From Escherichia coli (GTDB lineage Bacteria > Pseudomonadota > Gammaproteobacteria > Enterobacterales > Enterobacteriaceae): a DNA stretch of 64,000 nucleotides. Made by a program: the position numbers and the translations under genes. The notes under the pieces were generated by a model. The model saw only the letters and a program-made list of their open reading frames with translations. It ran no database searches and was not told where the DNA came from. The DNA is taken from NCBI RefSeq assembly GCF_029227855.1, contig NZ_CP074356.1; one strand, 5' to 3'. This document shows, piece by piece, positions 1 to 55,700 of this stretch; position 1 is the first letter of the stretch, and every line of letters starts with the position of its first letter.

Positions 1-272
1 ATGACGCTCTGACCGCTTTTAATCCACGGATTTTCTTTCCCGGCAATGGGTTTCACCAATAGTTGCAGCTGACTGCTGAATACGCCGCGATGATAGTTTT
101 GATAACTCACTTCCAGGTTGGATTCAGGAGCGGTCAGTTTGAGTTGCGCGTTCGCCTGCGCGACCATGTCTTCGAGATGGGTTTCAATCTTCTTGCCTGT
201 ATACCATGCGCCGCCTGTCCAGACTACGCCTAGCGCAACAATGACGCCTACCGCTACCAGCGATTTATTCAT
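1..272 (-). CDS. ydgA: YdgA-like protein, N-terminal ~90 codons only; gene runs off the window start
   Basis: Minus-strand ATG at 270-272; hand translation MNKSLVAVGVIVALGVVWTGGAWYTGKKIETHLEDMVAQ... with signal-anchor-like N-terminus; position next to manA fits E. coli synteny. Absent from ORF track because no stop lies in the window. Confidence 0.7.
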   Translation of the reverse strand, partial: MNKSLVAVGVIVALGVVWTGGAWYTGKKIETHLEDMVAQANAQLKLTAPESNLEVSYQNYHRGVFSSQLQLLVKPIAGKENPWIKSGQSV

Positions 273-372
273 AATGATTATCCATAAAATGAAATCAGGC
301 GGACTGGCCGCCTGAAGGTGTTATAAGCCTTTAATAAGCTTAGCAAGAGATGTTAATTTTTTCAGTAAGCTC

Positions 373-1548
373 TTACAGCTTGTTGTAAACACGCGCTAAA
401 CGGCCGTGGCCTTTGACAGTCACCGGTGATTCGTTGGCGGCAATAAACGCTGATTCACCCGGTTTAAGCTGTAACTGCTGAGAACCTTTCCACAGCGTTG
501 CATCGCCTTCGACGCAGAACAAAATGGCGGCACTCTGCTGGCTGATGGTGGTTTCTTTATCACTAAGGTCATGCAGCGAGAAGGCAAAATCATCCACAGG
601 AATCGGGAAGTCCAGTTCTGCACCTTGTTTCACCGGCTGGGTCAACAACTGGTTAGCCGGTTTGGCTTCGAACTTCACATTGGCAACCAGTTCCGGAATA
701 TCAATGTATTTAGGCGTCAGACCCGCACGCAGCACGTTATCGGAGTTCGCCATCACTTCCAGCGCCACGCCTTGCAGGTAAGCGTGCGGTGTTTCAGCGA
801 ACAGGAACATCGCTTCGCCAGGATTCAATTTCACCACATTCAGCAACAGCGGGGAGAACAGACCGCTGTCATCCGGGTAAAATTCAGAAATTAAACGAAT
901 TGTTTGCCACGGTTCACCCTGCTGGCTGTCAAGGGCCGATTTTAAAATCGCCAGCGCGCGGGATTTTTCTTCACCCTGCATATTCAACAGGCTGGCGAAC
1001 AGTTCGCTTAAACGTTCGGCATCAGGCTGTTGTAAAAAGTGAGCAATCGCCGGATGTGCACCTGCGACCGGCTGGAGCAGGGAGACAATCTCGGAAAACT
1101 CACGAAACGCGTTCATCGCAAGGAAAGGCGTCAGCGCAAAAACCAGCTCCGGCTTGTGGTTAGGATCTTTATAGTTACGCTCGGCGGCATCCAACGGAAT
1201 ACCTGCGGCATTTTCTTTGGCAAAACCGATTTCAGAATTGCGTTTGTTTGGATGAACCTGAATGGAGAGCGGCTGTGCTGCGCATAATACTTTGAACAGG
1301 AAAGGCAGTTCGCCAAAGCGTTTGGCAACGGCCTCTCCGAGCAGAGTCGATTTATCACTCTCAATCACATCACGCAGTGAAACGATATCTCCGGCGGCAT
1401 TCTGCACTCGTGAACTGCTTTTCGGATGTGCGCCCATCCACAGCTCGGCCATCGGCTGGCTGGACGGATTTTCCATACCATAAAGTTCAGTCAACGCCGT
1501 TTTGCTGCCCCAGGCATAGTTTTGCACTGAGTTAATGAGTTTTTGCAT
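373..1548 (-). CDS. manA: mannose-6-phosphate isomerase (391 aa)
   Basis: ORF 373..1626 (-); protein from internal Met MQKLINSVQNYAWGS... recognised as ManA; ATG at 1546-1548. Confidence 0.95.
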   Translation of the reverse strand: MQKLINSVQNYAWGSKTALTELYGMENPSSQPMAELWMGAHPKSSSRVQNAAGDIVSLRDVIESDKSTLLGEAVAKRFGELPFLFKVLCAAQPLSIQVHPNKRNSEIGFAKENAAGIPLDAAERNYKDPNHKPELVFALTPFLAMNAFREFSEIVSLLQPVAGAHPAIAHFLQQPDAERLSELFASLLNMQGEEKSRALAILKSALDSQQGEPWQTIRLISEFYPDDSGLFSPLLLNVVKLNPGEAMFLFAETPHAYLQGVALEVMANSDNVLRAGLTPKYIDIPELVANVKFEAKPANQLLTQPVKQGAELDFPIPVDDFAFSLHDLSDKETTISQQSAAILFCVEGDATLWKGSQQLQLKPGESAFIAANESPVTVKGHGRLARVYNKL

Positions 1549-1746
1549 GATCAATCCCTGTTTTAATGTGGAAATTAATCCCGCTATTAAAGCAAGAATC
1601 CTACGGGAAGTAACCTGGAGCCGCAAAAAGTCGTACTAGTCTCAGTTTTTGTTAAAAAAGTGTGTAGGATATTGTTACTCGCTTTTAACAGGGCAACGGA
1701 ACACCCGCCCAGAGCATAACCAAACCAGGCAGTAAGTGAGAGAACA

Positions 1747-3393
1747 ATGTCAAACAAACCCTTTCATTATCAGGCACCTTTTCCACTCAAAAAAGATGAT
1801 ACTGAGTATTACCTGCTAACCAGCGAACACGTTAGCGTATCTGAATTTGAAGGGCAGGAGATTTTGAAAGTCGCACCCGAAGCGTTAACTTTGTTGGCGC
1901 GTCAGGCGTTTCATGATGCGTCATTTATGCTGCGTCCGGCTCACCAACAACAGGTGGCCGACATTCTGCGTGACCCGGAAGCCAGCGAAAATGATAAATA
2001 TGTGGCGCTGCAATTCCTGCGCAACTCCGACATCGCCGCAAAAGGCGTTCTGCCAACCTGTCAGGATACCGGCACCGCGATTATTGTTGGTAAAAAAGGG
2101 CAGCGTGTATGGACCGGTGGCGGTGATGAAGTGGCGCTGGCACGCGGTGTCTATAACACTTATATCGAAGATAATCTGCGCTACTCGCAAAACGCGCCGC
2201 TGGATATGTATAAAGAGGTGAATACCGGCACCAATCTACCAGCGCAGATCGATCTTTATGCCGTTGATGGCGACGAGTACAAATTCCTCTGTATCGCCAA
2301 AGGTGGCGGTTCGGCAAACAAGACGTATCTCTATCAGGAAACCAAAGCGTTACTGACGCCGGGGAAACTGAAAAATTACCTGGTTGAGAAGATGCGCACG
2401 CTGGGTACGGCGGCCTGTCCTCCGTATCATATTGCGTTCGTTATTGGTGGAACTTCTGCAGAAACGAACCTTAAAACGGTGAAACTGGCTTCCGCTAAAT
2501 ACTATGATGAACTGCCAACGGAAGGGAATGAGCACGGACAGGCGTTCCGCGATGTGGAACTGGAAAAAGAATTGCTGATCGAAGCGCAAAATCTTGGTCT
2601 GGGTGCGCAGTTTGGCGGTAAATACTTCGCTCACGACATCCGCGTGATTCGCCTGCCACGTCACGGCGCATCCTGCCCGGTCGGTATGGGCGTCTCCTGT
2701 TCTGCTGACCGTAATATCAAAGCAAAGATCAACCGTCAGGGGATTTGGATCGAAAAACTGGAACATAATCCAGGCAAATATATCCCGGAAGAGCTGCGCA
2801 AAGCGGGAGAAGGCGAAGCGGTGCGCGTTGACCTTAACCGTCCGATGAAAGAGATCCTCGCACAGTTGTCGCAGTATCCCGTTTCTACACGCTTATCGCT
2901 GAATGGCACGATTATCGTTGGTCGTGATATTGCTCACGCCAAACTGAAAGAGCGGATGGATAACGGCGAAGGGCTGCCGCAGTATATTAAAGATCATCCG
3001 ATTTACTACGCGGGTCCGGCCAAAACGCCGGAAGGTTATGCCTCCGGTTCTCTTGGCCCAACGACCGCCGGACGGATGGATTCTTATGTCGATCAACTGC
3101 AAGCGCAGGGCGGAAGTATGATCATGCTGGCGAAAGGCAACCGCAGCCAGCAGGTGACGGATGCCTGTAAAAAACACGGCGGTTTCTACCTCGGTAGTAT
3201 CGGTGGTCCGGCAGCTGTATTGGCGCAGGGAAGTATTAAGAGCCTGGAATGTGTTGAATATCCGGAACTGGGAATGGAAGCCATCTGGAAAATTGAAGTG
3301 GAAGATTTCCCGGCATTTATCCTTGTGGATGATAAAGGAAATGACTTCTTCCAGCAGATACAACTCACACAGTGCACCCGCTGTGTGAAATAA
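1747..3393 (+). CDS. fumA: class I fumarate hydratase (Fe-S), 548 aa
   Basis: ORF track 548 aa [18 protein letters not shown]...; full-length FumA. Confidence 0.96.
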
Positions 3394-3398
3394 ACAGA

Positions 3399-3422
3399 GC
3401 CGCCCTTCGGGGCGGTTTTTTT
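3399..3422 (+). terminator. Rho-independent terminator after fumA
   Basis: GC hairpin gccgcccttcggggcgg followed by a T-run immediately after the fumA stop. Confidence 0.6.
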
Positions 3423-3535
3423 ACATGGCACGAAAGACCAAACATTTGTTATCAAATAGTAAATAATAAGTGAGCTAAAAGTTGCTTAACGAAAGCAAAA
3501 CAGAAAGAAAAAATTAATCAGGTGAGGAGCAGGCC

Positions 3536-7243
<3,708 letters not shown>

Positions 7244-25004: not shown

Positions 25005-25619
25005 CTATCGAAAGAGTGGTTTAACCGCGACAGGAATTAACAGTTGTGATTGCCATTGCGCCAGCGTTAAGCGAGCCAGTTCACCCAGTGCACGGTAGAA
25101 AGGGTGTTCTGCTTTTTCGATAAAAACGTCAAGAAAACGTGTTGACCACGGAAAAAGGTGCCATGCCAGCAATTCTTCGCATTCTGTCTGGCGACCATTC
25201 TCCGCCAACCACGCAGCCATCAAGAGCAGTGAACCAAAATGATCTTCCGGTTCGTTTTGCTTCATTTCAAACTGAATGCCTTTCTCGCGCATCCACTGAC
25301 GAAGTGCCAATGTTGAATCGCCAAACAGCACAGATTCGCGATCCAGCCAGACCGATCCCCACGGCGGAGACGGCAGTGCCCACGGGCCGACAAACAAACG
25401 CTGCCAGGCCTGGGCGCGAGTCTCTTCACTCTGTGCCTGAAAAGCCGTCACCAGCGGCGCTAATGACGCTTCTGGTAGAGGCCACTGAGTTTCCCAGCCG
25501 TCACGGGTGAGTACCGCAACCATGGGGGCGGCTTCCGCACTCTCTGGAGCGTAATAAAACAGCGCGCCCAACACGCGCGCCGCGACAGAAAAATTATCTT
25601 GCTGTGAAAAATGGGTCAT
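25005..25619 (-). CDS. dmsD: Tat proofreading chaperone DmsD (204 aa)
   Basis: ORF 25005..25628 (-); start at MTHFSQQDNF...; TorD/DmsD family. Confidence 0.92.
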   Translation of the reverse strand: MTHFSQQDNFSVAARVLGALFYYAPESAEAAPMVAVLTRDGWETQWPLPEASLAPLVTAFQAQSEETRAQAWQRLFVGPWALPSPPWGSVWLDRESVLFGDSTLALRQWMREKGIQFEMKQNEPEDHFGSLLLMAAWLAENGRQTECEELLAWHLFPWSTRFLDVFIEKAEHPFYRALGELARLTLAQWQSQLLIPVAVKPLFR

Positions 25620-25661: not shown

Positions 25662-26516
25662 TTAACCTGCAATAGCCATTCCTACCGTCATGTGCAGGCC
25701 ATAAAAGAGCACACGCCCGATCATCTCACCGCCAAGTATGAGGATTAGCCCCAGAACAAGTCCGGCAACGTGAGGTTCACGGCGACGAATGAGCGGACAA
25801 AGCCAGCATCCTAGACCTGCGCATAACAATACCACACGCCAGACCTGTAAGGAGGCGTAATCTGGTACCAGTGCGCTGGCTTGTTGTACGGATGAGTGAA
25901 TAGACGCCAGAGACAAACCTTGCAGCACAATCACCCCGGCACAAGCGATCAGCGCCAGAACGCTAATGATGGCAAAGGGTGTGGTATTAAATGTAATGCG
26001 GGCTGCCCGCAGAATTGTGGCAGCAAGTATTGGACCGCTCAACAATACTGTCAGGAAGAAAGCCAGCGTAGTGTAACCGTTATGCCAGGTTGGCACTGTG
26101 TCGATTTGATACACGCAGGTCATCATCCAGACGAAAATGACGCCGAGCGCCATGCTGACAAGTAACCAGAGTTTCCCCAACGCTTGCGGCATTTTACCGA
26201 TGACCGCCACCAGCCACCATAATCCGCCAACGGCAAAAAATATGGAGCCGGCAGCAATCTCGTTACTCAGACCAGAAGCTCCGATTCGATTCAGCGAGTT
26301 AAACGCCCGCAGTGGGGATCCCAGGTGCATGACAGAGGCAATAAACCCGATGCCCATCAACAGCCAGAGGAAAAACATGCCACGAACAATGTGCTGACGG
26401 TCTGCGTCATTTTTGGCGGCGAACCAGCCAATTCCGCTAACAATCAGCGCGCCTACTACGCATTGACCCAATACGGTAAAGATAACCAGTGGCCATTCAT
26501 GCCATCCATTTCCCAT
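25662..26516 (-). CDS. ynfH: DmsC-type membrane anchor subunit of the YnfEFGH oxidoreductase (284 aa)
   Basis: ORF 25662..26756 (-); start at ATG 26514-26516 (MGNGWHEWPLVIFTV...), directly after the ynfG stop. Confidence 0.92.
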   Translation of the reverse strand: MGNGWHEWPLVIFTVLGQCVVGALIVSGIGWFAAKNDADRQHIVRGMFFLWLLMGIGFIASVMHLGSPLRAFNSLNRIGASGLSNEIAAGSIFFAVGGLWWLVAVIGKMPQALGKLWLLVSMALGVIFVWMMTCVYQIDTVPTWHNGYTTLAFFLTVLLSGPILAATILRAARITFNTTPFAIISVLALIACAGVIVLQGLSLASIHSSVQQASALVPDYASLQVWRVVLLCAGLGCWLCPLIRRREPHVAGLVLGLILILGGEMIGRVLFYGLHMTVGMAIAG

Positions 26517-26517
26517 T

Positions 26518-27135
26518 TTACACTTCCTCCGGATTAGCCAGATAACCAGTGGTATCGCCGGTTGAGCGGCTGTTGGCGTTAGGTTTGATAACAATATTGG
26601 GTTTTGTGAAATGCGCGCGCGGCAGTGGCGCGACGGCAGCCAGAGTGCCGTGCTTCTGGCGCAGCTTTTCAATTGGACCGAACTCAAGTGCACGCAGCGG
26701 GCAGGATTCGACACATATGGGTTGTTTCCCCTCGGCGACGCGCGAATAACAACCATCGCACTTCGTCATGTGCCCTTTTTCAGCATTGTACTGTGGCGCG
26801 CCGTACGGACAAGCCATGTGGCAGTAGCGGCAGCCGATACAAACATCTTCATCAACCACCACAAAGCCATCTTCACGCTTATGCATTGCGCCGCTGGGGC
26901 AGACTTTTGTACATGCGGGGTCATCGCAATGGTTACAGGAGATGGAGAGATAATAAGCGAACACGTTCTGGTGCCAGACGCCATTATCTTCCTGCCAGTC
27001 GCCGCCAGCATATTCATAAATACGGCGGAAACTGACTTCCGGGCCAAGATCTTTAAAATCTTTGCACGCCAGTTCGCAGGTTTTACAGCCAGTACAGCGG
27101 CTGGAATCGATAAAAAATCCATATTGTGTGGTCAT
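26518..27135 (-). CDS. ynfG: 4Fe-4S ferredoxin-type electron-transfer subunit, DmsB-like (205 aa)
   Basis: ORF track 205 aa; four CxxCxxCxxxCP clusters. Confidence 0.95.
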   Translation of the reverse strand: MTTQYGFFIDSSRCTGCKTCELACKDFKDLGPEVSFRRIYEYAGGDWQEDNGVWHQNVFAYYLSISCNHCDDPACTKVCPSGAMHKREDGFVVVDEDVCIGCRYCHMACPYGAPQYNAEKGHMTKCDGCYSRVAEGKQPICVESCPLRALEFGPIEKLRQKHGTLAAVAPLPRAHFTKPNIVIKPNANSRSTGDTTGYLANPEEV

Positions 27136-27145
27136 GGGCTACTCC

Positions 27146-29572
27146 TTAAACCTTTTCGATCTGGACAAGATTGCTGTGCGACGGGTTTCCCTTTGCCAGC
27201 GGTGAAGGGCGGTGAGAGGTCAGAATATTGATACTGCCGCCGTGATCGACCCGGTCACCAAACATATCCGCTTTAAGCCACGCACCTTGCCCGATGGCGG
27301 TAACGCCAGGCAGAATACGCGGAGTCACTTTTGCGGCAATCAGCATTTCTCCATTATTGTTAAATACCCGCACGGTATCGCCATGACGGATACCGCGTGC
27401 CTGAGCATCAATAGGGTTGATCCACACCTCTTGTGGGCAGGCCTGCTGTAACACATCAATATTGCCGTAGCTGGAGTGGGTACGCGCTTTGTAGTGGAAG
27501 CCCGTTAGCTGCAGTGGATAGGTTTTCCGCAGGGGATCGTCCCAGCCATCAAAACCTGGCGTATACGCAGGAAGGGGATGAATAATTTCATCTTTTTTCA
27601 ATTCCCAGGTATCCGCAATCGTCGCCAGTCGTTCAGAATAAATTTCGATTTTCCCCGAAGGTGTTTTCAACGGGTTTGCCTGTGGATCTTCACGGAATGC
27701 GCGGAAAGCGACGTAGTGTTCTTCCGGGCATTTTTTCTTAAAGATCCCGGTCGTTTTCATCTCCTCGTAGTCGGGCATCTCAGGGTTACGTTCCTTCGTT
27801 TTCGCATGGAGATATTTGATCCATTCGTGCTGACTGCGACCTTCAGTAAAGGTTTGATAAACGTCTGGTCCTAAGCGTTTGGCAACTTCACTCAGAATCC
27901 AGTAGATGGGTTTGCGTTCAAATTTTGCTGAGGTTGCGGGTTGGGCGAGGATCACATAGCCCATATTCCCGGCAGATTCATGAGAGATAAGGTCTTCTTG
28001 CTCTGTTGGCATCAGGTCGGGCAACAGGATATCGCAATACTTAGCCGAGGCAGTCATGAAGTGGTCAATGCCAACAATCATCTCGCACTTGCTGTCATCC
28101 TGAAGCACCTCATGGGTGTGATTGATGTCGCCATGTTGATTGATCAATGTGTTACTGGCGTAGCACCATAAAAACTTGATGGGGACATCCAGTTTTTCTT
28201 TTCCACGAACACCATCACGGGTCGCGGTCATTTCCGTACCGTGGTCGATGGCATCTGTCCATGTAAAGACGGAAATCTGCGTTTTAACAGGATTCTCAAG
28301 CATCGGGAACCATTCTACCCCCAGATCCCAGCTACCTTCGCGTACACCTGAGTTGCCGCCGTTTATGCCGACGTTACCGGTGAGAACGGAAAGCATGGCA
28401 ATAGCGCGGGACGTTTGTTCGCCGTTGGAGTGTCGTTGTGGCCCCCAACCCTGACAAATATAAGCAGGTTTTGCTGAACCGATCTCTCGTGCCAACTGGA
28501 TAATTTTTTCTGCCGGGATGCTGGTGATTTTTGCTGCCCATTCCGGCGTTTTAGCTATGCCGTCAGGCCCTTCGCCCAGAATATAGGCTTTATAATGCGC
28601 GTTACGTGGTGCGTTGGCGGGCAGCGTTTTTTCATCGTAACCAACACAATATTTGTCGAGAAATGGCTGATCGACCATGTTCTCAGTAATCAGTACCCAG
28701 GCAATCGCACAGGCCAGTGCGCCATCGGTGCCTGGGCGAATTGGCAGCCATTCATCTTCACGCCCGGCAGCAGTGTCGTTATAACGTGGATCGATGACGA
28801 TCATGCGTGCGTTTGAACGTTCGCGGGCTTGCTCGACGTAGTAAGTGACACCACCGCCGCTCATCCGCGTTTCTGCCGGGTTATTTCCGAACATAACGAC
28901 CAGTTTCGTATTGGCGATATCATCCGGGCTGTTGCCATCATTGGCACCGAACATATAACTCATCGCGGCACTGATCTGTGCGGTACTGTAGCTACCATAG
29001 CGACTGAGAAAACCACCGCAAGAGTTCATCAGACGGTACGGGACGTTTGAGTTGGTGATGTTTCCGCCATCTACGCCTGTTCCGTACAGGACATGTACAG
29101 CCTCATTGCCGTAATCTTTAAGGATCCGCCGAAGATTATCACTGATGGTATCCAGGGCTTCATCCCAACTTATCCGTTCAAATTTACCTTCACCGCGCTT
29201 GCCGACGCGCTTCATGGGATATTTCAACCTGTCAGGATGATTCATCCGTCGGCGGATAGAGCGCCCGCGTAAACATGCCCGAACCTGATGATTACCGTAA
29301 ACGTCGTCACCTGTCGTATCAGACTCCACCCAGTACACGGTGTCATCTTTCACATGCAAACGTAACAGACAGCGGCTCCCGCAGTTAACGGTGCAGGAAC
29401 TCCAGACCGCTTTCTCTCCTACCGGTGCCTCTGCCGCTCGGACCATTTGGGAAAATGGCAGAGTGAAAGCACTGCTTGCCAGCGCAAGACTGCCAAGTGC
29501 GGAGGTTTTCATCAGACTTCTACGGCTGATTTCAGCCTTCATGAGCGCCTCTGTGGTATGGATTTTCATCAT
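27146..29572 (-). CDS. ynfF: Tat-exported molybdopterin oxidoreductase catalytic subunit, DmsA paralogue (807-808 aa)
   Basis: ORF track 808 aa; twin-arginine signal SRRSLMKTSALGSLALA; alternative start one codon downstream (29569). Confidence 0.95.
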   Translation of the reverse strand: MMKIHTTEALMKAEISRRSLMKTSALGSLALASSAFTLPFSQMVRAAEAPVGEKAVWSSCTVNCGSRCLLRLHVKDDTVYWVESDTTGDDVYGNHQVRACLRGRSIRRRMNHPDRLKYPMKRVGKRGEGKFERISWDEALDTISDNLRRILKDYGNEAVHVLYGTGVDGGNITNSNVPYRLMNSCGGFLSRYGSYSTAQISAAMSYMFGANDGNSPDDIANTKLVVMFGNNPAETRMSGGGVTYYVEQARERSNARMIVIDPRYNDTAAGREDEWLPIRPGTDGALACAIAWVLITENMVDQPFLDKYCVGYDEKTLPANAPRNAHYKAYILGEGPDGIAKTPEWAAKITSIPAEKIIQLAREIGSAKPAYICQGWGPQRHSNGEQTSRAIAMLSVLTGNVGINGGNSGVREGSWDLGVEWFPMLENPVKTQISVFTWTDAIDHGTEMTATRDGVRGKEKLDVPIKFLWCYASNTLINQHGDINHTHEVLQDDSKCEMIVGIDHFMTASAKYCDILLPDLMPTEQEDLISHESAGNMGYVILAQPATSAKFERKPIYWILSEVAKRLGPDVYQTFTEGRSQHEWIKYLHAKTKERNPEMPDYEEMKTTGIFKKKCPEEHYVAFRAFREDPQANPLKTPSGKIEIYSERLATIADTWELKKDEIIHPLPAYTPGFDGWDDPLRKTYPLQLTGFHYKARTHSSYGNIDVLQQACPQEVWINPIDAQARGIRHGDTVRVFNNNGEMLIAAKVTPRILPGVTAIGQGAWLKADMFGDRVDHGGSINILTSHRPSPLAKGNPSHSNLVQIEKV

Positions 29573-29629
29573 TACTCACTTATTGCTTTTCAAACAAAAT
29601 GTCATGTCAGAATTTATGGTTGTTGTGGG

Positions 29630-32056
29630 TTATATTTTTTCGATCTCGACCAGATTAGTGTGCTGCGGGTTTCCCTTCGCCAGTGGTGAAGGGCGCAGAG
29701 TGGTTAGCGTATTCACACAGCCGCCGTGGTCGATTTTATCGCCAGACATATTGGCCTCGTGCCAGGCTCCCTGGCCCATAGCGCTAACCCCAGGGAGAAT
29801 GCGTGGTGTTACTTTGGCTGGTAGCCGAACTTCGCCACGATGGTTAAACACCCGCACCATATCGCCGTTGGCAATCCCACGTTTCTGTGCATCTATAGGG
29901 TTGATCCACACCTCCTGACGGCAGGCTGCCTTCAGGACATCAATGTTGCCGTAGGTCGAGTGAGTACGGGATTTGTAATGGAAACCAAACAGTTGCAGTG
30001 GGAAGGTGCTACGTTCAGGGGAGTCCCAGCCTTCAAAGGTTGAGGCATAAACCGGCAGTGGGCTTATCACTTCATCTTTTTCCAGTTCCCAGGTACGGGC
30101 AATTTCCGCCAGCTTGCTGGAGTAAATTTCAATCTTACCGGAAGGCGTTTTAAGTGGATTTGCCTCGGGGTCGTCACGAAATGCTTTGTAGGCGACAAAA
30201 TGACCATTGGGATCTTTACGCTTATAGATACCCATTTTTTTCAGTTCGTCGTAAGACGGTAACGCCGGATCTTTGGCAAGCATTTTGGCGTACAGATGTT
30301 GTAACCATTGTTCCTGAGTGCGACCTTCAGTGAACTTTTGATAGACTTCAGGTCCAAGACGTTTCGCGACTTCACTCAGGATCCAGTAAATCGGTTTGCG
30401 TTCGAATTTTTCGCTGGTGACTGGCTGAAGGAAAATGAGATATCCCATGTTACCGGCGTAGTCGTTAGGAATAATATCTTCCTGCTCAACGGTCATCAGG
30501 TCTGGCAGCAGAATGTCGGCATATTTTGCCGATGAGGTCATAAAGTTTTCGATGACCACAATCATTTCGCATTTCGATTCGTCCTGCAGAATTTCATGCG
30601 TTTTGTTGATGTCAGAATGCTGATTAACCAGGGTATTTCCCGCGTAGTTCCAGATGAACTTAATGGGCACATCCAGTTTATCTTTGCCGCGGACGCCGTC
30701 GCGGATTGCCGTCATTTGCGGGCCATGATCGATAGCATCCGTCCAGCTGAAGCAGGAGATTGACGTTTTAACCGGATTATCCAGCACCGGCAGGCGTTCT
30801 ATGGTAATGGTATAGGTCGATTCACGCGCGCCACTATTTCCGCCGCTGATGCCGACATTGCCCGTCAAAATAGGCAACATCGCAATAGCGCGTGCAGTCA
30901 GTTCGCCGTTTGCCTGGCGTTGCGGCCCCCAGCCCTGGCAGATATAAGCGGGTTTTGCTGTGCCAATTTCACGCGCCAGTTTGATGATACGGTCCACCGG
31001 GATACCGGTAATTTGCGAAGCCCACTGCGGCGTTTTCGCTGTTTTATCGTCACCTTCACCAAGAATATAGGCTTTATAGTGACCATTTTTTGGTGCATCT
31101 GCGGGTAAGGTTTTTTCGTCATAGCCGACGCAGTATTTATCGAGAAAAGGTTGATCAACGAGATTTTCGTTAATCAATACCCAGGCAATACCCGCAACCA
31201 GCGCGGCATCGGTGCCCGGGCGAATAGGAAGCCATTCATCTTCACGACCGGCAGCCGTATCGGTATATCGCGGATCGATAACAATCATTTTTGCGTTCGA
31301 TTTCTCGCGCGCTTTTTCAAGAAGATAAGTGATGCCACCACCGCTCATGCGGGTTTCTGCCGGGTTGTTACCAAACATCACGACCAGCTTGCTGTTTTCA
31401 ATATCCGTGGTGCTGTTGCCATCATTACTGCCGTAGGTGTAGGGCATGGCACAGGAAATTTGCGCGGTGCTGTAGGAGCCATACTGGTTGAGTGAACCGC
31501 CGTAGCAGTTCATCAGGCGTTTGACCGCCGAGGCGGATGGCGAAGAGCGGGTCATATTGCCGCCAACGATCCCTGAAGAGTACTGAATATATACAGCCTC
31601 ATTGCCATATTGTTCGACGGTTTTTTTCAGGCTACTGGCCATAGTATCCAGGGCTTCATCCCAGCTAATCCGTTCGAATTTGCCTTCGCCGCGTTTGCCC
31701 ACGCGTTTCATTGGGTAATTCAAGCGATCGGGATGATTAATACGCCGACGGATGGAGCGACCGCGCAAACAGGCACGTACTTGATGATTGCCATACTCGT
31801 CGTTGCCGGTGTTGTCAGTTTCCACCCAGGTCACTTCATTATCTTTAACATGCAGACGAAGTGCACAGCGGCTACCACAGTTGACGGAACAGGCACCCCA
31901 GACCACTTTCTCGCTGGCCTGCTGTACCGCTGCCGCTGCACTGCGCAGGGTGAACGGTAAAGAAAAACCGCCTGCAGCCAGCGCCAGAGAACCTATCGCG
32001 GTAGATTTAACGAGTGTTCTGCGGCTGATGCCCACCATTTGTTCATTTTTGGACAT
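29630..32056 (-). CDS. ynfE: Tat-exported molybdopterin oxidoreductase catalytic subunit (putative selenate reductase), 808 aa
   Basis: ORF track 808 aa; twin-arginine signal SRRTLVKSTAIGSLALA; long stretches identical to YnfF. Confidence 0.95.
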   Translation of the reverse strand: MSKNEQMVGISRRTLVKSTAIGSLALAAGGFSLPFTLRSAAAAVQQASEKVVWGACSVNCGSRCALRLHVKDNEVTWVETDNTGNDEYGNHQVRACLRGRSIRRRINHPDRLNYPMKRVGKRGEGKFERISWDEALDTMASSLKKTVEQYGNEAVYIQYSSGIVGGNMTRSSPSASAVKRLMNCYGGSLNQYGSYSTAQISCAMPYTYGSNDGNSTTDIENSKLVVMFGNNPAETRMSGGGITYLLEKAREKSNAKMIVIDPRYTDTAAGREDEWLPIRPGTDAALVAGIAWVLINENLVDQPFLDKYCVGYDEKTLPADAPKNGHYKAYILGEGDDKTAKTPQWASQITGIPVDRIIKLAREIGTAKPAYICQGWGPQRQANGELTARAIAMLPILTGNVGISGGNSGARESTYTITIERLPVLDNPVKTSISCFSWTDAIDHGPQMTAIRDGVRGKDKLDVPIKFIWNYAGNTLVNQHSDINKTHEILQDESKCEMIVVIENFMTSSAKYADILLPDLMTVEQEDIIPNDYAGNMGYLIFLQPVTSEKFERKPIYWILSEVAKRLGPEVYQKFTEGRTQEQWLQHLYAKMLAKDPALPSYDELKKMGIYKRKDPNGHFVAYKAFRDDPEANPLKTPSGKIEIYSSKLAEIARTWELEKDEVISPLPVYASTFEGWDSPERSTFPLQLFGFHYKSRTHSTYGNIDVLKAACRQEVWINPIDAQKRGIANGDMVRVFNHRGEVRLPAKVTPRILPGVSAMGQGAWHEANMSGDKIDHGGCVNTLTTLRPSPLAKGNPQHTNLVEIEKI

Positions 32057-32155: not shown

Positions 32156-32169
32156 TTAATCCATATCAA
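32156..32169 (-). promoter_or_regulatory. candidate FNR-type site upstream of ynfE
   Basis: Minus strand reads TTGAT-ATGG-ATTAA (one mismatch to TTGAT-N4-ATCAA), ~105 bp upstream of the ynfE ATG; anaerobic oxidoreductase operon. Confidence 0.3.
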
Positions 32170-37415: not shown

Positions 37416-38696
37416 TTAATTTTTCATTGCTTCGTTATGGGGCATGGTTGGGGCAAACTCGCTTAACTGTGTATTTAACAAAGCTACCTGTGCATTATTG
37501 TTTTCAGACATCCATTTTCCGTATACCTGAAATACCATTTGCGCATCTGCATGGCCCATCTGGTTTGCTATAAATGCCGGGTTAGCACCAGCTGTCAGCG
37601 ACCAGCAGGCATAAGTATGTCTCGACTGATATGATTTTCGATGGCGGAGTCCGGCACGTTTTATCGCTGCGTCCCACATCTGCCTTATTGAGTCAACGGT
37701 AAAATGGTCACCATAATTTTTTACTCTCGCTGACACTTCAGGTTGAAAAACAAAGGTGCATTTTTGTTTTTCTGTTCTGCCATACTCTCTGAGGTGAACA
37801 TCAATGATATGCTCTTTGCTCAGTCTCGTTAATGTCATCTGACTCCGGAGAGCGTCGATTGCTGGCTTAATAAGATGAATGACCCGATTGGTTCCCGCCT
37901 GTGTTTTTGGTACCGTGAAACGGTCTTTTGCTAAATTTCTCCTGATCATCATTGTTCCATTTTTCAGATCTATGTCCTCCCATCCAAGTGCACACAGCTC
38001 ACCAGGGCGAACGCCAGTATAAACAGAAACACACCATAAATTTTTTGCTTGCTGATTTCTGCACGCATCGATAAGACGGATAAATTCCTCCCGCGAAAGA
38101 GGATCCGGAATGGTTCTTGATTCCTTTAATGGCGAGATCCCCTTAAACGGATTATCTGGCAGGTAACCGTTATCAACACCAAACTGGAACACGGCGTTAA
38201 GATTTGTCATGTAATTATTTACAGTTACAGCCGATCTCCCTGGTTGTGTAACAATATAGTTACTTTTGGGGATCTGGTATCCAGTCAGTAGCTCTTTACG
38301 AACCTCCAGTAATTTTTCTTTATTAATCGATGAGGCAAGATTTTTTTCACCGATTATGCTCAGGATATTTTTGATGACGGCACGGTATGTGTTGAGTGAT
38401 GTTTTGGCGACTTCAGTTTCTTTCAGTGCCAGAAATTTTTCAGCCAGTTCTTTTATGGTTAAATCTTGTCGGGCCTCACCAAATTTTTCCAGATTGCGTG
38501 AGGAGGGAAACTGTTTTGCATAGTCGAAAACACCAGTTTTTATTGCGTAACAAACAGAGGCGCGTAGTTCACCTGCAACGCGCCTGTTTTTTGCTGTGTC
38601 AGGAACCCCCAGATTTTCCCTGACTCTTACGCCTTTATAAACAAACCAGATACGTAATTTCCCTCCATGGTTTTCCACGCCTGTCGGATATTTCAT
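37416..38696 (-). CDS. intQ: phage tyrosine integrase (about 426 aa)
   Basis: ORF 37416..38711 (-); preferred start at second ATG 38696 (MKYPTGVENHGGKLRIWF...) preceded by GAGAGG; catalytic region ...HRKSYQSRHTYACW...HADAQMVFQVYGKWM. Confidence 0.88.
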   Translation of the reverse strand: MKYPTGVENHGGKLRIWFVYKGVRVRENLGVPDTAKNRRVAGELRASVCYAIKTGVFDYAKQFPSSRNLEKFGEARQDLTIKELAEKFLALKETEVAKTSLNTYRAVIKNILSIIGEKNLASSINKEKLLEVRKELLTGYQIPKSNYIVTQPGRSAVTVNNYMTNLNAVFQFGVDNGYLPDNPFKGISPLKESRTIPDPLSREEFIRLIDACRNQQAKNLWCVSVYTGVRPGELCALGWEDIDLKNGTMMIRRNLAKDRFTVPKTQAGTNRVIHLIKPAIDALRSQMTLTRLSKEHIIDVHLREYGRTEKQKCTFVFQPEVSARVKNYGDHFTVDSIRQMWDAAIKRAGLRHRKSYQSRHTYACWSLTAGANPAFIANQMGHADAQMVFQVYGKWMSENNNAQVALLNTQLSEFAPTMPHNEAMKN

Positions 38697-54944: not shown

Positions 54945-55135
54945 AAGATATGATGTGATGGCATTTTATAAAGTTGTTTTTTTGAAGTGTAAGATTATAC
55001 GATATTTTTAGCTACGCCAGAATAATTGCTGGCGTTTTTCTTTTTGAATAGATGTTCGGGCCTTACGCTAATGTAATTTTTTTCCTTCTTCGAACCAAAC
55101 CGTGTACACCATCCGTTATCTGCGGAGGTGAGGCT

Positions 55136-55351
55136 ATGAAATCCATGGATAAGTTAACAACGGGCATCGCCTACGGCACCTCTGCAGGCAGTGCTGGCTA
55201 CTGGTTTTTACAGTTGCTCGATAAAGTCACGCCCTCACAGTGGGCGGCAATAGGTGTATTGGGTAGTCTGGTATTTGGCATGCTGACGTATCTGACTAAC
55301 CTTTATTTCAAGATTAAAGAAGACAGGCGTAAGGCTGAGAGAGGAGAGTAA
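55136..55351 (+). CDS. essQ: phage holin (71 aa)
   Basis: ORF 55052..55351; ATG 55136 after GGAGGTGAGG; [30 protein letters not shown]...[13 protein letters not shown]. Confidence 0.88.
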
Positions 55352-55355
55352 TCCA

Positions 55356-55700
55356 ATGACTCAAGTATACGAACTGGTTGTGAAAGGAGTCCGTAATTTT
55401 GAGAATAAAGTTGCGGTAACTTTAGCCTTACAGGACAAAGAACGCTTTGACGGTGAGATTTTTGACCTTGATATCACTATGGATCGTGTTGAAGGTGCTG
55501 CACTGGAGTTTTATGAGGCAGCAGCCAGAAGGAGAATCAGACAGGTGTTCTTGGATGTTGCTGCCGGGTTATGTGAAGGGGATGAGCAGTCGCCGGAAAA
55601 GCGCCCCATAATTTTAGAGGCGCAGAATGTGTGGATAACCTACAAAGGAAAGCTACCAGGAAGAATTACTGGTTATCTGAAGACTCCGCCGGAATGTTAA
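55356..55700 (+). CDS. hypothetical protein between holin and endolysin (114 aa)
   Basis: ATG 55356 after GAGGAGAG, 5 nt after the holin stop. Confidence 0.5.
   Translation: MTQVYELVVKGVRNFENKVAVTLALQDKERFDGEIFDLDITMDRVEGAALEFYEAAARRRIRQVFLDVAAGLCEGDEQSPEKRPIILEAQNVWITYKGKLPGRITGYLKTPPEC

Follow-up and report, generated by a model that had tools for sequence, protein, structure and literature searches.

Organization of the ynfEFGH-dmsD locus

We analysed a 64,000-nt stretch of Escherichia coli DNA (hereafter the window; contig NZ_CP074356.1 of RefSeq assembly GCF_029227855.1), which is 100% identical to strain JNEC-KY178 and to the annotated E. coli genome NZ_AP045174.1. Open reading frames, RefSeq annotation and NCBIfam models place ynfF and ynfE at 27146-32056 on the minus strand, with ynfG, ynfH and dmsD downstream in one copy each:

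32156..32169, plus strand: FNR-consensus-like site TTAATCCATATCAA, found by pattern search, with 1 mismatch to TTGAT-N4-ATCAA, ~100 nt upstream of the ynfE start codon
29630..32056, minus strand: ynfE, first catalytic-subunit gene, a 2,427-nt ORF of 808 codons encoding 808 aa (ORF, RefSeq, NCBIfam, Pfam, motifs)
29573..29629, minus strand: ynfE-ynfF spacer, 57 nt (from the sequence)
27146..29572, minus strand: ynfF, second catalytic-subunit gene, a 2,427-nt ORF of 808 codons (ORF, RefSeq, NCBIfam, Pfam, motifs)
26518..27135, minus strand: ynfG, shared four-cluster iron-sulfur electron-transfer subunit of 205 aa (262 bits with TIGR02951, cutoff 214; RefSeq)
25662..26516, minus strand: ynfH, membrane anchor subunit and DmsC paralogue, 284 aa (RefSeq; 57% aa identity to DmsC)
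25005..25619, minus strand: dmsD, Tat proofreading chaperone of 204 aa (344 bits with NF008632, cutoff 162; RefSeq)

RefSeq starts ynfF one codon later than the ORF, at 29569, giving 807 aa, so the description of two ~2.4-kb genes for proteins of 807-808 aa in an earlier note on this DNA is accurate. Its gene names, operon layout and single downstream copies of ynfG, ynfH and dmsD are likewise borne out by RefSeq and by NCBIfam, where each protein passes its own cutoff apart from YnfH, for which no NCBIfam match was found at 1e-10; the Pfam family PF04976 (DmsC) does match the ynfH-equivalent gene of loci L102-L105. The ynfG start lies 10 nt past the ynfF stop codon. A consensus scan of the 57-nt spacer between ynfE and ynfF found neither a promoter-like nor a terminator-like site, which is consistent with co-transcription. 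We take the ynfEFGH-dmsD operon to be under FNR control. FNR-like sites across the window are no more frequent than chance (53 seen versus 44 expected), and it is position alone that makes TTAATCCATATCAA a suggestive candidate for a site upstream of ynfE.

The catalytic genes, a DmsB-type iron-sulfur subunit, a DmsC-type anchor and the DmsD chaperone thus share a single strand. We consider it very probable that the region is the ordinary, already known ynfEFGH-dmsD operon of E. coli in its intact state, and that ynfE and ynfF are an old tandem duplicate whose copies have evolved independently. Of 5,426 complete E. coli genomes, 5,322 carry ynfEF.

Two related catalytic subunits

Family models separate the two catalytic proteins cleanly. 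YnfE scores 1796.8 bits against NF041885 (selenate/tellurate reductase subunit YnfE; cutoff 1675), which YnfF fails at 1480.3 bits; YnfF scores 1772.6 bits against NF041884 (selenate/tellurate reductase subunit YnfF; cutoff 1650), which YnfE fails at 1477.9 bits. Both pass TIGR02166, the DmsA/YnfE-type model of the DMSO reductase superfamily, with 1397 and 1284 bits against a cutoff of 778. YnfE carries the Pfam domains Fe4S4 (49-108), Molybdopterin (111-566) and Molydop_binding (687-800), and YnfF has the same three. The cysteine group of YnfE (C56-x3-C-x3-C...C96) recurs in YnfF as C-x3-C-x3-C...C. Twin-arginine motifs at aa 11 of YnfE (SRRTLVK) and aa 16 of YnfF (SRRSLMK) predict export, and together with the Pfam domains they agree with the assignment of both proteins as putative Tat-exported molybdoenzymes. 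The same note had called their signal peptides near-identical, which proved wrong: the signal-peptide region is 42% identical (22 of 53 columns, 6 gapped) versus 71.8% in the mature part, and only an SRRxLxK...GSLALA...LPF core is common to both.

The YnfEFGH-DmsD system is described as a selenate (tellurate) reductase (Lubitz & Weiner 2003; Guymer et al. 2009; Fujita et al. 2021, as cited in PMC12096835 and PMC5203670). Deletion of ynfEF in E. coli abolishes selenate reduction, and the two proteins have been termed isoenzymes (PMC12724226); in Salmonella, most of the activity comes from YnfE (PMC5203670). By analogy with the DmsABC model and from this published genetics, YnfE and YnfF would be alternative Tat-exported DmsA-type catalytic subunits, each with a molybdopterin guanine dinucleotide cofactor and one [4Fe-4S] cluster. 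Either one would pair with the single YnfG, the quinol-oxidising YnfH anchor and DmsD to form a periplasm-facing selenate/tellurate reductase.

Divergence without gene conversion

The earlier note described long identical protein stretches in this pair, regarded such tandem duplicates as substrates for homologous recombination and gene conversion, and named low nucleotide identity as the finding that would speak against this. At the protein level the stretches are real: BLASTP aligns YnfE and YnfF at 567 of 801 positions (71% identity, E = 0), and the longest identical blocks measure 25, 20, 20, 19 and 18 aa. They have no equivalent in the DNA, where unbroken identity extends over at most 20 nt in the window strain (20.1 +/- 3.7 in shuffled sequences), 17 nt in K-12 and 17-20 nt over the strain pairs tested. 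Pairwise alignment gave 69.4% DNA identity, with 46% at third codon positions, a saturated dS of ~2.3 and a dN of 0.21 (NG86), largely the low identity the note had named. The long protein blocks reflect purifying selection on cofactor-binding segments. Assembly collapse, raised as a worry for this pair, poses no problem for genes only 69% identical, and the assembly carries the two as distinct copies.

We looked for exchange within and between strains. Local identity in the window's ynfE/ynfF pair showed no excess, its observed maximum being attained in 1,874 of 2,000 simulations. Among 9 ynfE and 9 ynfF alleles from diverse strains, no conversion tract was found; runs of informative sites matching the paralogue never exceeded 2, and ynfE-ynfF identity stayed at 69.1-70.1% across all strain pairs. 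The minimal efficient processing segment (MEPS) in E. coli is ~23-90 bp (PMC3758752), and no identity block of that length occurs in the pair, in the window strain, in K-12 or across the strain pairs tested. With 69% identity and no identical stretch above 20 nt, ynfE and ynfF should be poor substrates for RecA-dependent homologous recombination. In a neighbour-joining tree built on simple distances, YnfE (34 taxa) and YnfF (5 taxa) form separate clades with 100% bootstrap each, E. coli clustering with Salmonella and Citrobacter inside both, a pattern across genera that argues against concerted evolution.

Could concerted evolution nevertheless maintain the identical stretches, with the pair acting as an active substrate for recombination and gene conversion? 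The protein blocks of up to 25 aa and a same-codon frequency at identical residues of 48%, versus 40% expected with synonymous sites fully randomised, lean that way, and the rare gene fusions described below show that ynfE and ynfF are able to pair and exchange. The codon excess is likely explained by shared codon bias at conserved residues, and the protein blocks lack a DNA counterpart beyond the run length that shuffling produces. Saturated synonymous divergence, the lack of clustered paralogue-type variants in the 18 alleles and the reciprocal monophyly of the two clades all count against it, as does a Salmonella pair that is also 71% identical (PMC5203670). We regard concerted evolution as highly improbable and close to refuted, although conversion events that were very old or very short may have occurred. 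What survives of the earlier claim is rare unequal exchange (10 of 5,426 genomes); conversion finds no tract in the window pair or the 18 alleles and no run above 20 nt. In a side analysis, the 93% aa identity of YnfG and DmsB had suggested gene conversion between ynfG and dmsB in E. coli, which a dS of 2.5 ruled out.

Natural ynfE'-'ynfF hybrid genes

We screened 5,426 complete E. coli genomes with a split probe and added a protein look-up. The screen revealed a single in-register ynfE'-'ynfF hybrid gene in 10 genomes, representing two alleles (A and B), with the probe joined within exactly 2,427 bp in all ten. The look-up added two further independent hybrids (alleles C and D) by a method able to see only full-length hybrids in register; that in-register junctions predominate is thus partly a matter of ascertainment. 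Fusion has therefore taken place in at least four independent events in natural E. coli. The exchange islands, given in window coordinates with their position in ynfE, are:

31353..31366, minus strand: allele B island AACCCGGCAGAAAC, 14 nt (ynfE nt 691-704); ynfF partner 28869-28882
31028..31036, minus strand: allele C island AAAACGCCG, 9 nt (ynfE nt 1021-1029); ynfF partner 28544-28552; P0020
30901..30910, minus strand: allele A island AACGGCGAAC, 10 nt (ynfE nt 1147-1156); ynfF partner 28417-28426
30764..30769, minus strand: allele D island AAAACG, 6 nt (ynfE nt 1288-1293); ynfF partner 28280-28285; P0021

The allele D island extends to 9 nt, GTTAAAACG, in the window strain, where both parental genes are intact and distinct; the hybrids are known from other strains. 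Each allele is a 2,427-nt gene with one clean, in-frame, in-register switch from E- to F-type sequence and an 808-aa product, in the locus order ynfD, fusion gene, ynfG. Site by site, allele B goes from 227/0 in its E-type part to 0/506 in its F-type part, and in allele C none of 740 sites is discordant. Allele A occurs in ECONIH4, the 0H series and CAVP776, and is nucleotide-identical over 6.9 kb in eight complete genomes (ECONIH4, six 0H from Alberta and CAVP776 from Virginia); its exact protein is present on 68 contigs from several sources. Allele B is carried by JCC-EE 7 and FELIX_MS533. Further carriers of hybrids are the assemblies GCA_014942065.1 and GCA_017909975.1.

Assemblers commonly use k-mers whose smallest sizes exceed 17-20 nt. 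Collapse of two paralogues into one, the hazard named in the earlier note, could in principle create such chimeras, and alleles C and D do come from draft short-read assemblies. No identical stretch between the paralogues exceeds 17-20 nt, however; C and D are each found in an NCBI assembly and in an independent Logan assembly, allele A recurs unchanged in complete genomes from three separate sources and on the 68 contigs, and allele B is found in two independent complete genomes. With junctions that are clean and in frame and the correct genes on both flanks, an assembly artefact is barely credible as the source of the hybrids.

Unequal exchange between ynfE and ynfF thus happens, rarely, and it is not classical long-homology recombination, as exchange intervals of 6-14 nt sit well below the classical homology requirement. 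Each hybrid lacks, in register, a single repeat unit of 2,484 bp, so that 5' ynfE is joined to 3' ynfF. Short-homology or homeologous exchange is the likely mechanism, perhaps through slipped misalignment, through template switching from one sister chromosome to the other, or through RecA exchange that evaded rejection by mismatch repair. We rejected the in-register junctions as statistical proof of homeologous pairing: among exact matches of at least 6 nt only 5.6% lie in register, yet 78-100% of those of 10-14 nt do, and C and D were ascertained in register only. AZ191, a candidate fifth in-register fusion, was also dismissed: it is a 1,931-bp deletion out of register, in an ST131-type background, and its junction links ynfE nt 834 with ynfF nt 279 without microhomology.

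A more far-reaching proposal would have ynfE and ynfF, for all their 31% DNA divergence and lack of identity blocks above 20 nt, recombining recurrently in register in nature, yielding functional hybrids, one of which persists in a circulating lineage (the 68 contigs), with the clean loss of ynfF in Escherichia whittamii, and perhaps in further single-copy lineages, arising by the same process. We think this improbable; homeology-guided exchange would then evade mismatch-repair rejection, and the hybrids would be natural domain-swap variants mapping the distinctions between YnfE and YnfF. As they stand, the four hybrids record that wild genomes undergo unequal exchange at identity islands of 6-14 nt, and they offer ready chimeras for locating determinants of substrate preference. 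We found no mention of the hybrid alleles, or of the patchy distribution of ynfF across genera, in the literature searched.

Decay of either copy

Decay through internal deletions, IS insertions or frameshifts in either copy is far commoner than fusion. A ynfF pseudogene with internal deletions, recognised by its 580-bp deletion junction, is present in 546 of 5,426 genomes (10%), and IS insertions in ynfE and ynfF are frequent. Both genes have been listed among the most pseudogenised metabolic genes (PMC13322260). Such common decay fits partial redundancy of YnfE and YnfF. The ST131-type 854-bp shortening of ynfF had looked like a paralogue-mediated event and turned out to consist of two internal deletions (274 + 580 bp) without junction homology. 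A dead ynfF in ~10% of complete E. coli genomes, among them that of EC958, the ST131 model strain, affects how 'ynfF' expression and knockout data from such strains are read.

Origin and distribution of ynfF

A true ynfF adjoins ynfE in 4 of 79 loci from other genera (Salmonella twice, C. amalonaticus and Pseudocitrobacter); the remaining Enterobacteriaceae loci pass directly from ynfE to ynfG or end before a second gene would be visible. This sparse distribution raises the possibility that ynfF arose otherwise than by local tandem duplication of ynfE: it may be an ancient duplicate lost in most Enterobacteriaceae, or a horizontal insertion between ynfE and ynfG. In keeping with that, YnfF branches outside the whole YnfE clade, including its Yersiniaceae and Budvicia members, and its N-terminal n-region and C-terminus are closer to DmsA than to YnfE (also reported in PMC5203670). 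Other evidence points back to local duplication. YnfF shares 29 fixed states with YnfE and 16 with DmsA; its long stem branch could be misplaced by long-branch attraction in a neighbour-joining tree; and ynfF occupies the identical position in all carriers. It also has 3 of 4 derived states of Enterobacteriaceae YnfE, favouring a younger duplication within Enterobacteriaceae and a burst of change after it, though with only 4 usable columns this signature is underpowered. On balance we find a separate origin possible and rather doubtful, and we retain the old tandem duplicate as our reading of the pair.

The single gene of E. whittamii follows E-type sequence as far as ...GAGATCGAAAA and F-type sequence from there on (GGTTTAA, spacer, ynfG). 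We discarded this junction as proof of an E/F crossover, because its pattern recurs in nearly all single-copy genera. Tree-based parsimony, the only evidence on this point, favours secondary loss of ynfF over ancestral absence in this species. No direct ynfE-to-ynfG junction was found in E. coli genomes, and no ancient E/F chimeras were found in single-copy genera.

Comparison with known systems

The window operon matches the YnfEFGH-DmsD operon of E. coli and Salmonella in genes, order, lengths, Tat signals and the 71% identity of YnfE and YnfF, and shows no difference from it. For the window itself the consequences are few: a textbook operon in its normal state, without collapse or conversion. 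DmsABC, the E. coli dimethyl sulfoxide reductase, has the same three-subunit architecture with all domains (YnfE 68% and YnfF 67% identical to DmsA, YnfG 93% to DmsB, YnfH 57% to DmsC), and DmsD serves both systems (PMC12096835). It differs in having a separate locus and one catalytic gene. YnfE (1345 bits) and YnfF (1317 bits) fail the DmsA-specific NCBIfam cutoff of 1600, and synonymous sites are saturated in all DmsABC-Ynf pairs (dS 2.5-4.4).

Single-copy ynfE-ynfG-ynfH loci with the same downstream genes occur in most Enterobacteriaceae (Enterobacter, Klebsiella, Kluyvera, the C. freundii group) and in Escherichia whittamii. Their catalytic gene is orthologous (84-96% aa identity) and E-type throughout (84-97 of 99 diagnostic columns). 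They differ in lacking ynfF, and their gene end ...GAGAAGGTTTAA, 10-nt spacer and ynfG reproduce the junction of E. coli ynfF.

Gene conversion keeps tufA and tufB of enterobacteria at ~99% DNA identity. Like them, ynfE and ynfF are two full-length paralogues per genome with partly interchangeable products; unlike them, they show 69% identity, saturated synonymous sites and separate orthologue clades, and identical protein blocks in paralogues should not be taken as DNA-level homology. Haemoglobin Lepore and the red/green opsin hybrids arise by unequal crossover between tandem paralogues with long, highly similar homology. The ynfE'-'ynfF alleles resemble these in being in-register deletions of one unit that leave an in-frame chimera of 5'-A and 3'-B type, but their 6-14-nt intervals on a ~70% background bring them closer to bacterial short-homology deletion formation.

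The ynfE-ynfF pair and its surroundings

Two neighbouring genes for catalytic subunits lie in the window, separated by a 57-nt spacer:

ynfE, 29630-32056, minus strand, 2,427-nt ORF
ynfF, 27146-29572, minus strand, 2,427-nt ORF

The ORFs, NCBIfam scores and domains bear out the earlier note's reading of a tandem pair of ~2.4-kb catalytic-subunit genes. YnfE passes its own NCBIfam model (1796.8; cutoff 1675) and fails that of YnfF (1477.9), and YnfF passes its own (1772.6; cutoff 1650) and fails that of YnfE (1480.3). Fe4S4, Molybdopterin and Molydop_binding domains occur in both proteins, as do the twin-arginine motif, a C-x3-C-x3-C...C group and the conserved YSTAQ serine context; the proposed assignment to Tat-exported molybdoenzymes therefore holds, with export predicted. 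The region is 100% identical to that of E. coli strain JNEC-KY178, whose annotation names the pair ynfE and ynfF, for subunits of a selenate/tellurate reductase; ynfG, ynfH and dmsD follow as one copy each. The signal peptides had been described as near-identical, but this region is only 42% identical, compared with 72% for the mature protein, in agreement with the published difference of the YnfE n-region from those of YnfF and DmsA (PMC5203670). The locus is known, its outline had been described correctly, and the window itself contains nothing unusual.

Drawing on the literature and on the paralogous DMSO reductase DmsABC, we infer that YnfE and YnfF act as alternative catalytic subunits on common YnfG, YnfH and DmsD. 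E. coli without ynfE and ynfF no longer reduces selenate (PMC12724226), and in Salmonella most of the activity comes from YnfE (PMC5203670). A candidate FNR-like site lies ~100 nt upstream of ynfE. A consensus scan found no promoter-like or terminator-like signal in the spacer, consistent with ynfE and ynfF sharing one transcript.

The surrounding window also contains:

tus, 4936-5865
prophage integrase, 37416-38696

The presence of tus puts the ynf locus in the replication terminus region. A lambdoid (Qin-like) prophage (window 37416-64000) starts beside rspB. Besides dicB, hokD and genes for lysis and terminase, it has tRNA-Ile, tRNA-Thr and tRNA-Gly genes at ~55096-55405. At the same site strain EC958 has no prophage, and rspB adjoins ydfJ.

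Divergence and tests for gene conversion

The earlier note took the pair for a substrate of recombination and gene conversion, a view that low nucleotide identity would refute. Identity is low: 69.4% for codon-aligned DNA (79%, 83% and 46% at codon positions 1, 2 and 3) and 71% for protein (BLASTP), with NG86 dN and dS of 0.21 and 2.3 (saturated). The proposed pairwise alignment mapped no conversion tract in the window's pair. Identical, degenerate residues use the same codon in 48% of cases versus 40% if fully randomised. Long identical stretches do exist in the proteins but not in the DNA, where the longest run is 20 nt (20.1 +/- 3.7 in codon-column shuffles). Windows of 30 identical, degenerate residue sites revealed no local same-codon excess, the observed maximum being reached in 1,874 of 2,000 uniform-rate simulations.

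We extended the comparison to 9 alleles of each gene, taken from diverse E. coli strains and at most 2.9% divergent within a gene. Every ynfE-ynfF pair is 69.1-70.1% identical, with longest identical runs of 17-20 nt. No conversion tract was found in any of the 18 alleles, paralogue-type bases never extending beyond two consecutive informative sites. In a bootstrapped neighbour-joining tree of 46 proteins, the YnfE (34 taxa) and YnfF (5 taxa) clades each have 100% support, and E. coli sits with Salmonella and Citrobacter within both. Salmonella YnfE and YnfF are likewise 71% identical (PMC5203670). Judged by these clades and the Salmonella value, concerted evolution of the pair is excluded at least since the split of E. 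coli, Salmonella and Citrobacter. The same tree gives YnfF a long stem branch, yet slower change than YnfE inside its clade (E. coli-Salmonella distance 0.080 versus 0.130). The pattern suggests that YnfF changed rapidly at first and later came under stronger constraint.

Natural ynfE'-'ynfF hybrid genes

Although no conversion tract was detected and efficient homologous recombination is not expected, the recombination claim survives in one respect: rare unequal exchange has occurred in other strains. We searched 5,426 complete E. coli genomes with a split probe (3' 1 kb of ynfF plus 5' 1 kb of ynfE), whose halves come together at a single place only when roughly one repeat unit is absent. They joined within exactly 2,427 bp in 10 genomes; an eleventh was complex. 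All 10 carry a single 808-codon gene between ynfD and ynfG that, assigned site by site, changes cleanly and only once from E-type to F-type sequence. Reading 40 of the 899 members of a protein cluster brought up two further hybrids, alleles C and D, also 808 aa long but with different breakpoints; each is flanked by the genes expected at this locus.

Hybrid alleles, their carriers and the identity island at the exchange
Allele A: ECONIH4, six 0H strains, CAVP776; AACGGCGA[A/G]C, 10 nt; ynfE nt 1147-1156
Allele B: JCC-EE 7, FELIX_MS533; AACCCGGCAGAAAC, 14 nt; ynfE nt 691-704
Allele C: P0020, 4 contigs; AAAACGCCG, 9 nt; ynfE nt 1021-1029
Allele D: P0021, 2 contigs; AAAACG, 6 nt; ynfE nt 1288-1293

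Carriers of allele A are identical over 6.9 kb, and its exact protein occurs on 68 contigs. Allele B is an exact K-12 composite (informative sites 227/0, then 0/506), and allele C has 0/740 discordant sites. All four islands are also found in the window's own genes and lie within the central Molybdopterin domain. It is very unlikely that the hybrids are assembly artefacts: no identical ynfE/ynfF stretch exceeds 17-20 nt, and independent projects and independent assemblers have recovered the alleles repeatedly. The eleventh genome, strain AZ191, was rejected as an in-register fusion, its 1,931-bp deletion being out of register and without homology.

Loss of one repeat unit is thus rare, clean and in register, at very short identity islands and without conversion. 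Because homologous recombination in E. coli requires ~23-90 bp of homology (MEPS) and mismatch repair aborts exchange of diverged sequences (PMC3758752, PMC8918686), we infer that these events did not come from classical RecA recombination, which acts on long homology; mutS/mutL mutants tolerate shorter MEPS (PMC3758752, PMC8918686). Slipped misalignment is one likely route and template switching between sister chromosomes another, as is homeologous exchange escaping mismatch repair. The hybrids do not distinguish between them, since 78-100% of exact ynfE/ynfF matches of at least 10 nt are in register regardless and the 6-nt case (allele D) came from a method blind to out-of-register products.

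Decay of the pair in E. coli

The same 5,426 genomes served as the population survey.

ynfEF states among 5,426 complete E. coli genomes
Any ynfEF match: 5,322 genomes
At least 80% of two-gene segment covered: 5,126 genomes
ynfF 580-bp deletion junction (pseudogene; counted within the 5,126): 546 genomes (10.1%)
In-register ynfE'-'ynfF fusion: 10 genomes (2 alleles)
Out-of-register E/F deletion (AZ191): 1 genome

No match was found in 104 of the 5,426, and none of the 5,426 has a direct ynfE-to-ynfG junction. The representative pseudogene carrier, MNCRE44, lacks two segments from inside ynfF, one of 274 bp (window 27228-27501), the other of 580 bp (window 28276-28855), with no homology at either junction; what is left is a 1,570-bp frameshifted pseudogene, and the ynfE beside it is intact. 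A frameshifted ynfF pseudogene of 1,570 bp also occurs in EC958, the ST131 reference strain (pseudogene loci L002 and L101); the 'ynfF' expression reported in EC958 (J Bacteriol 2025, PMC12096835) therefore measured pseudogene transcription.

Other lesions are diverse. In GPEC1031 (locus L003, 7515-11515), ynfE is cut at window ~30660 by an element with a site-specific integrase, then IS100; the record class at 72% query coverage is likewise truncated. An IS1-associated deletion in MB07152 (locus L004, 5001-7341) runs from within ynfF into ydfJ, leaving the 3'-terminal 336 bp of ynfF beside IS1 and a 5'-truncated ydfJ. In many genomes ynfE or ynfF is interrupted by IS1203, IS3, ISEc52, IS5 or IS1 (records H146-H165). 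A further independent inactivation is seen in strain 25-06685 (locus L100, 1-2425), whose ynfF is full-length but for a 1-nt frameshift. In many lineages the locus is decaying, and a 2026 pangenome study ranks both genes with the metabolic genes most often pseudogenised (PMC13322260). Frequent single-copy loss in natural strains fits partial redundancy of YnfE and YnfF.

Distribution of ynfF across genera

Among 80 YnfE loci from other species, a true ynfF stands beside ynfE only in Salmonella (two subspecies), Citrobacter amalonaticus and Pseudocitrobacter faecalis, whose ynfF genes are 89-92% identical. In most Enterobacteriaceae loci a single E-type gene directly precedes ynfG; in single-copy Enterobacteriaceae we found no ancient ynfE/ynfF chimera, the catalytic gene being E-type over its whole length. 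Escherichia whittamii (locus L005, 7001-10055) has ynfE, a 10-nt spacer and ynfG, with no ynfF. At the junction the sequence is of the E type as far as GAGATCGAAAA and of the F type beyond (last two codons plus spacer), a pattern rejected as proof of an E/F crossover given that nearly all single-copy genera share it. The absence of ynfF here is probably a secondary loss, favoured by parsimony on the tree.

In the 46-protein neighbour-joining tree, YnfF falls outside the entire YnfE clade. It has 29 fixed states in common with YnfE versus 16 with DmsA, and carries three of the only four usable Enterobacteriaceae-YnfE signature states. On the age of the duplication, tree position and shared-state counts appear to point different ways.

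We also compared Salmonella ynfG (locus L017, from 11985) with E. coli dmsB, the DmsABC FeS-subunit gene (locus L085, 5415-6032), and with E. coli ynfG. Nucleotide identity is 86.1% to dmsB (third positions 61%) and lower, 82.5%, to ynfG (third positions 55%), and the Salmonella ynfG and E. coli dmsB products both end in NPKEV. In Salmonella diarizonae a 70-nt stretch just past the ynfF stop, made up of the 10-nt spacer and the first 60 nt of ynfG, matches the E. coli dmsA-dmsB junction exactly. This likeness could stem from conversion between dmsB and ynfG in one lineage or another, or E. coli ynfG may have changed faster.

Only two items here are mildly new: the hybrid alleles found in nature and the scattered occurrence of ynfF among genera. 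In Yersiniaceae, the gene right after that of the YnfE orthologue encodes a DmsA orthologue (distance 0.21 to E. coli DmsA). Serratia, Rahnella and Ewingella have the order YnfE orthologue, DmsA orthologue (distance ~0.21), dmsB-like gene (loci L069, L072, L074, L076, L077, L080 and L081; second large gene at ~9.5-12.1 kb in most), unlike the arrangement in E. coli.
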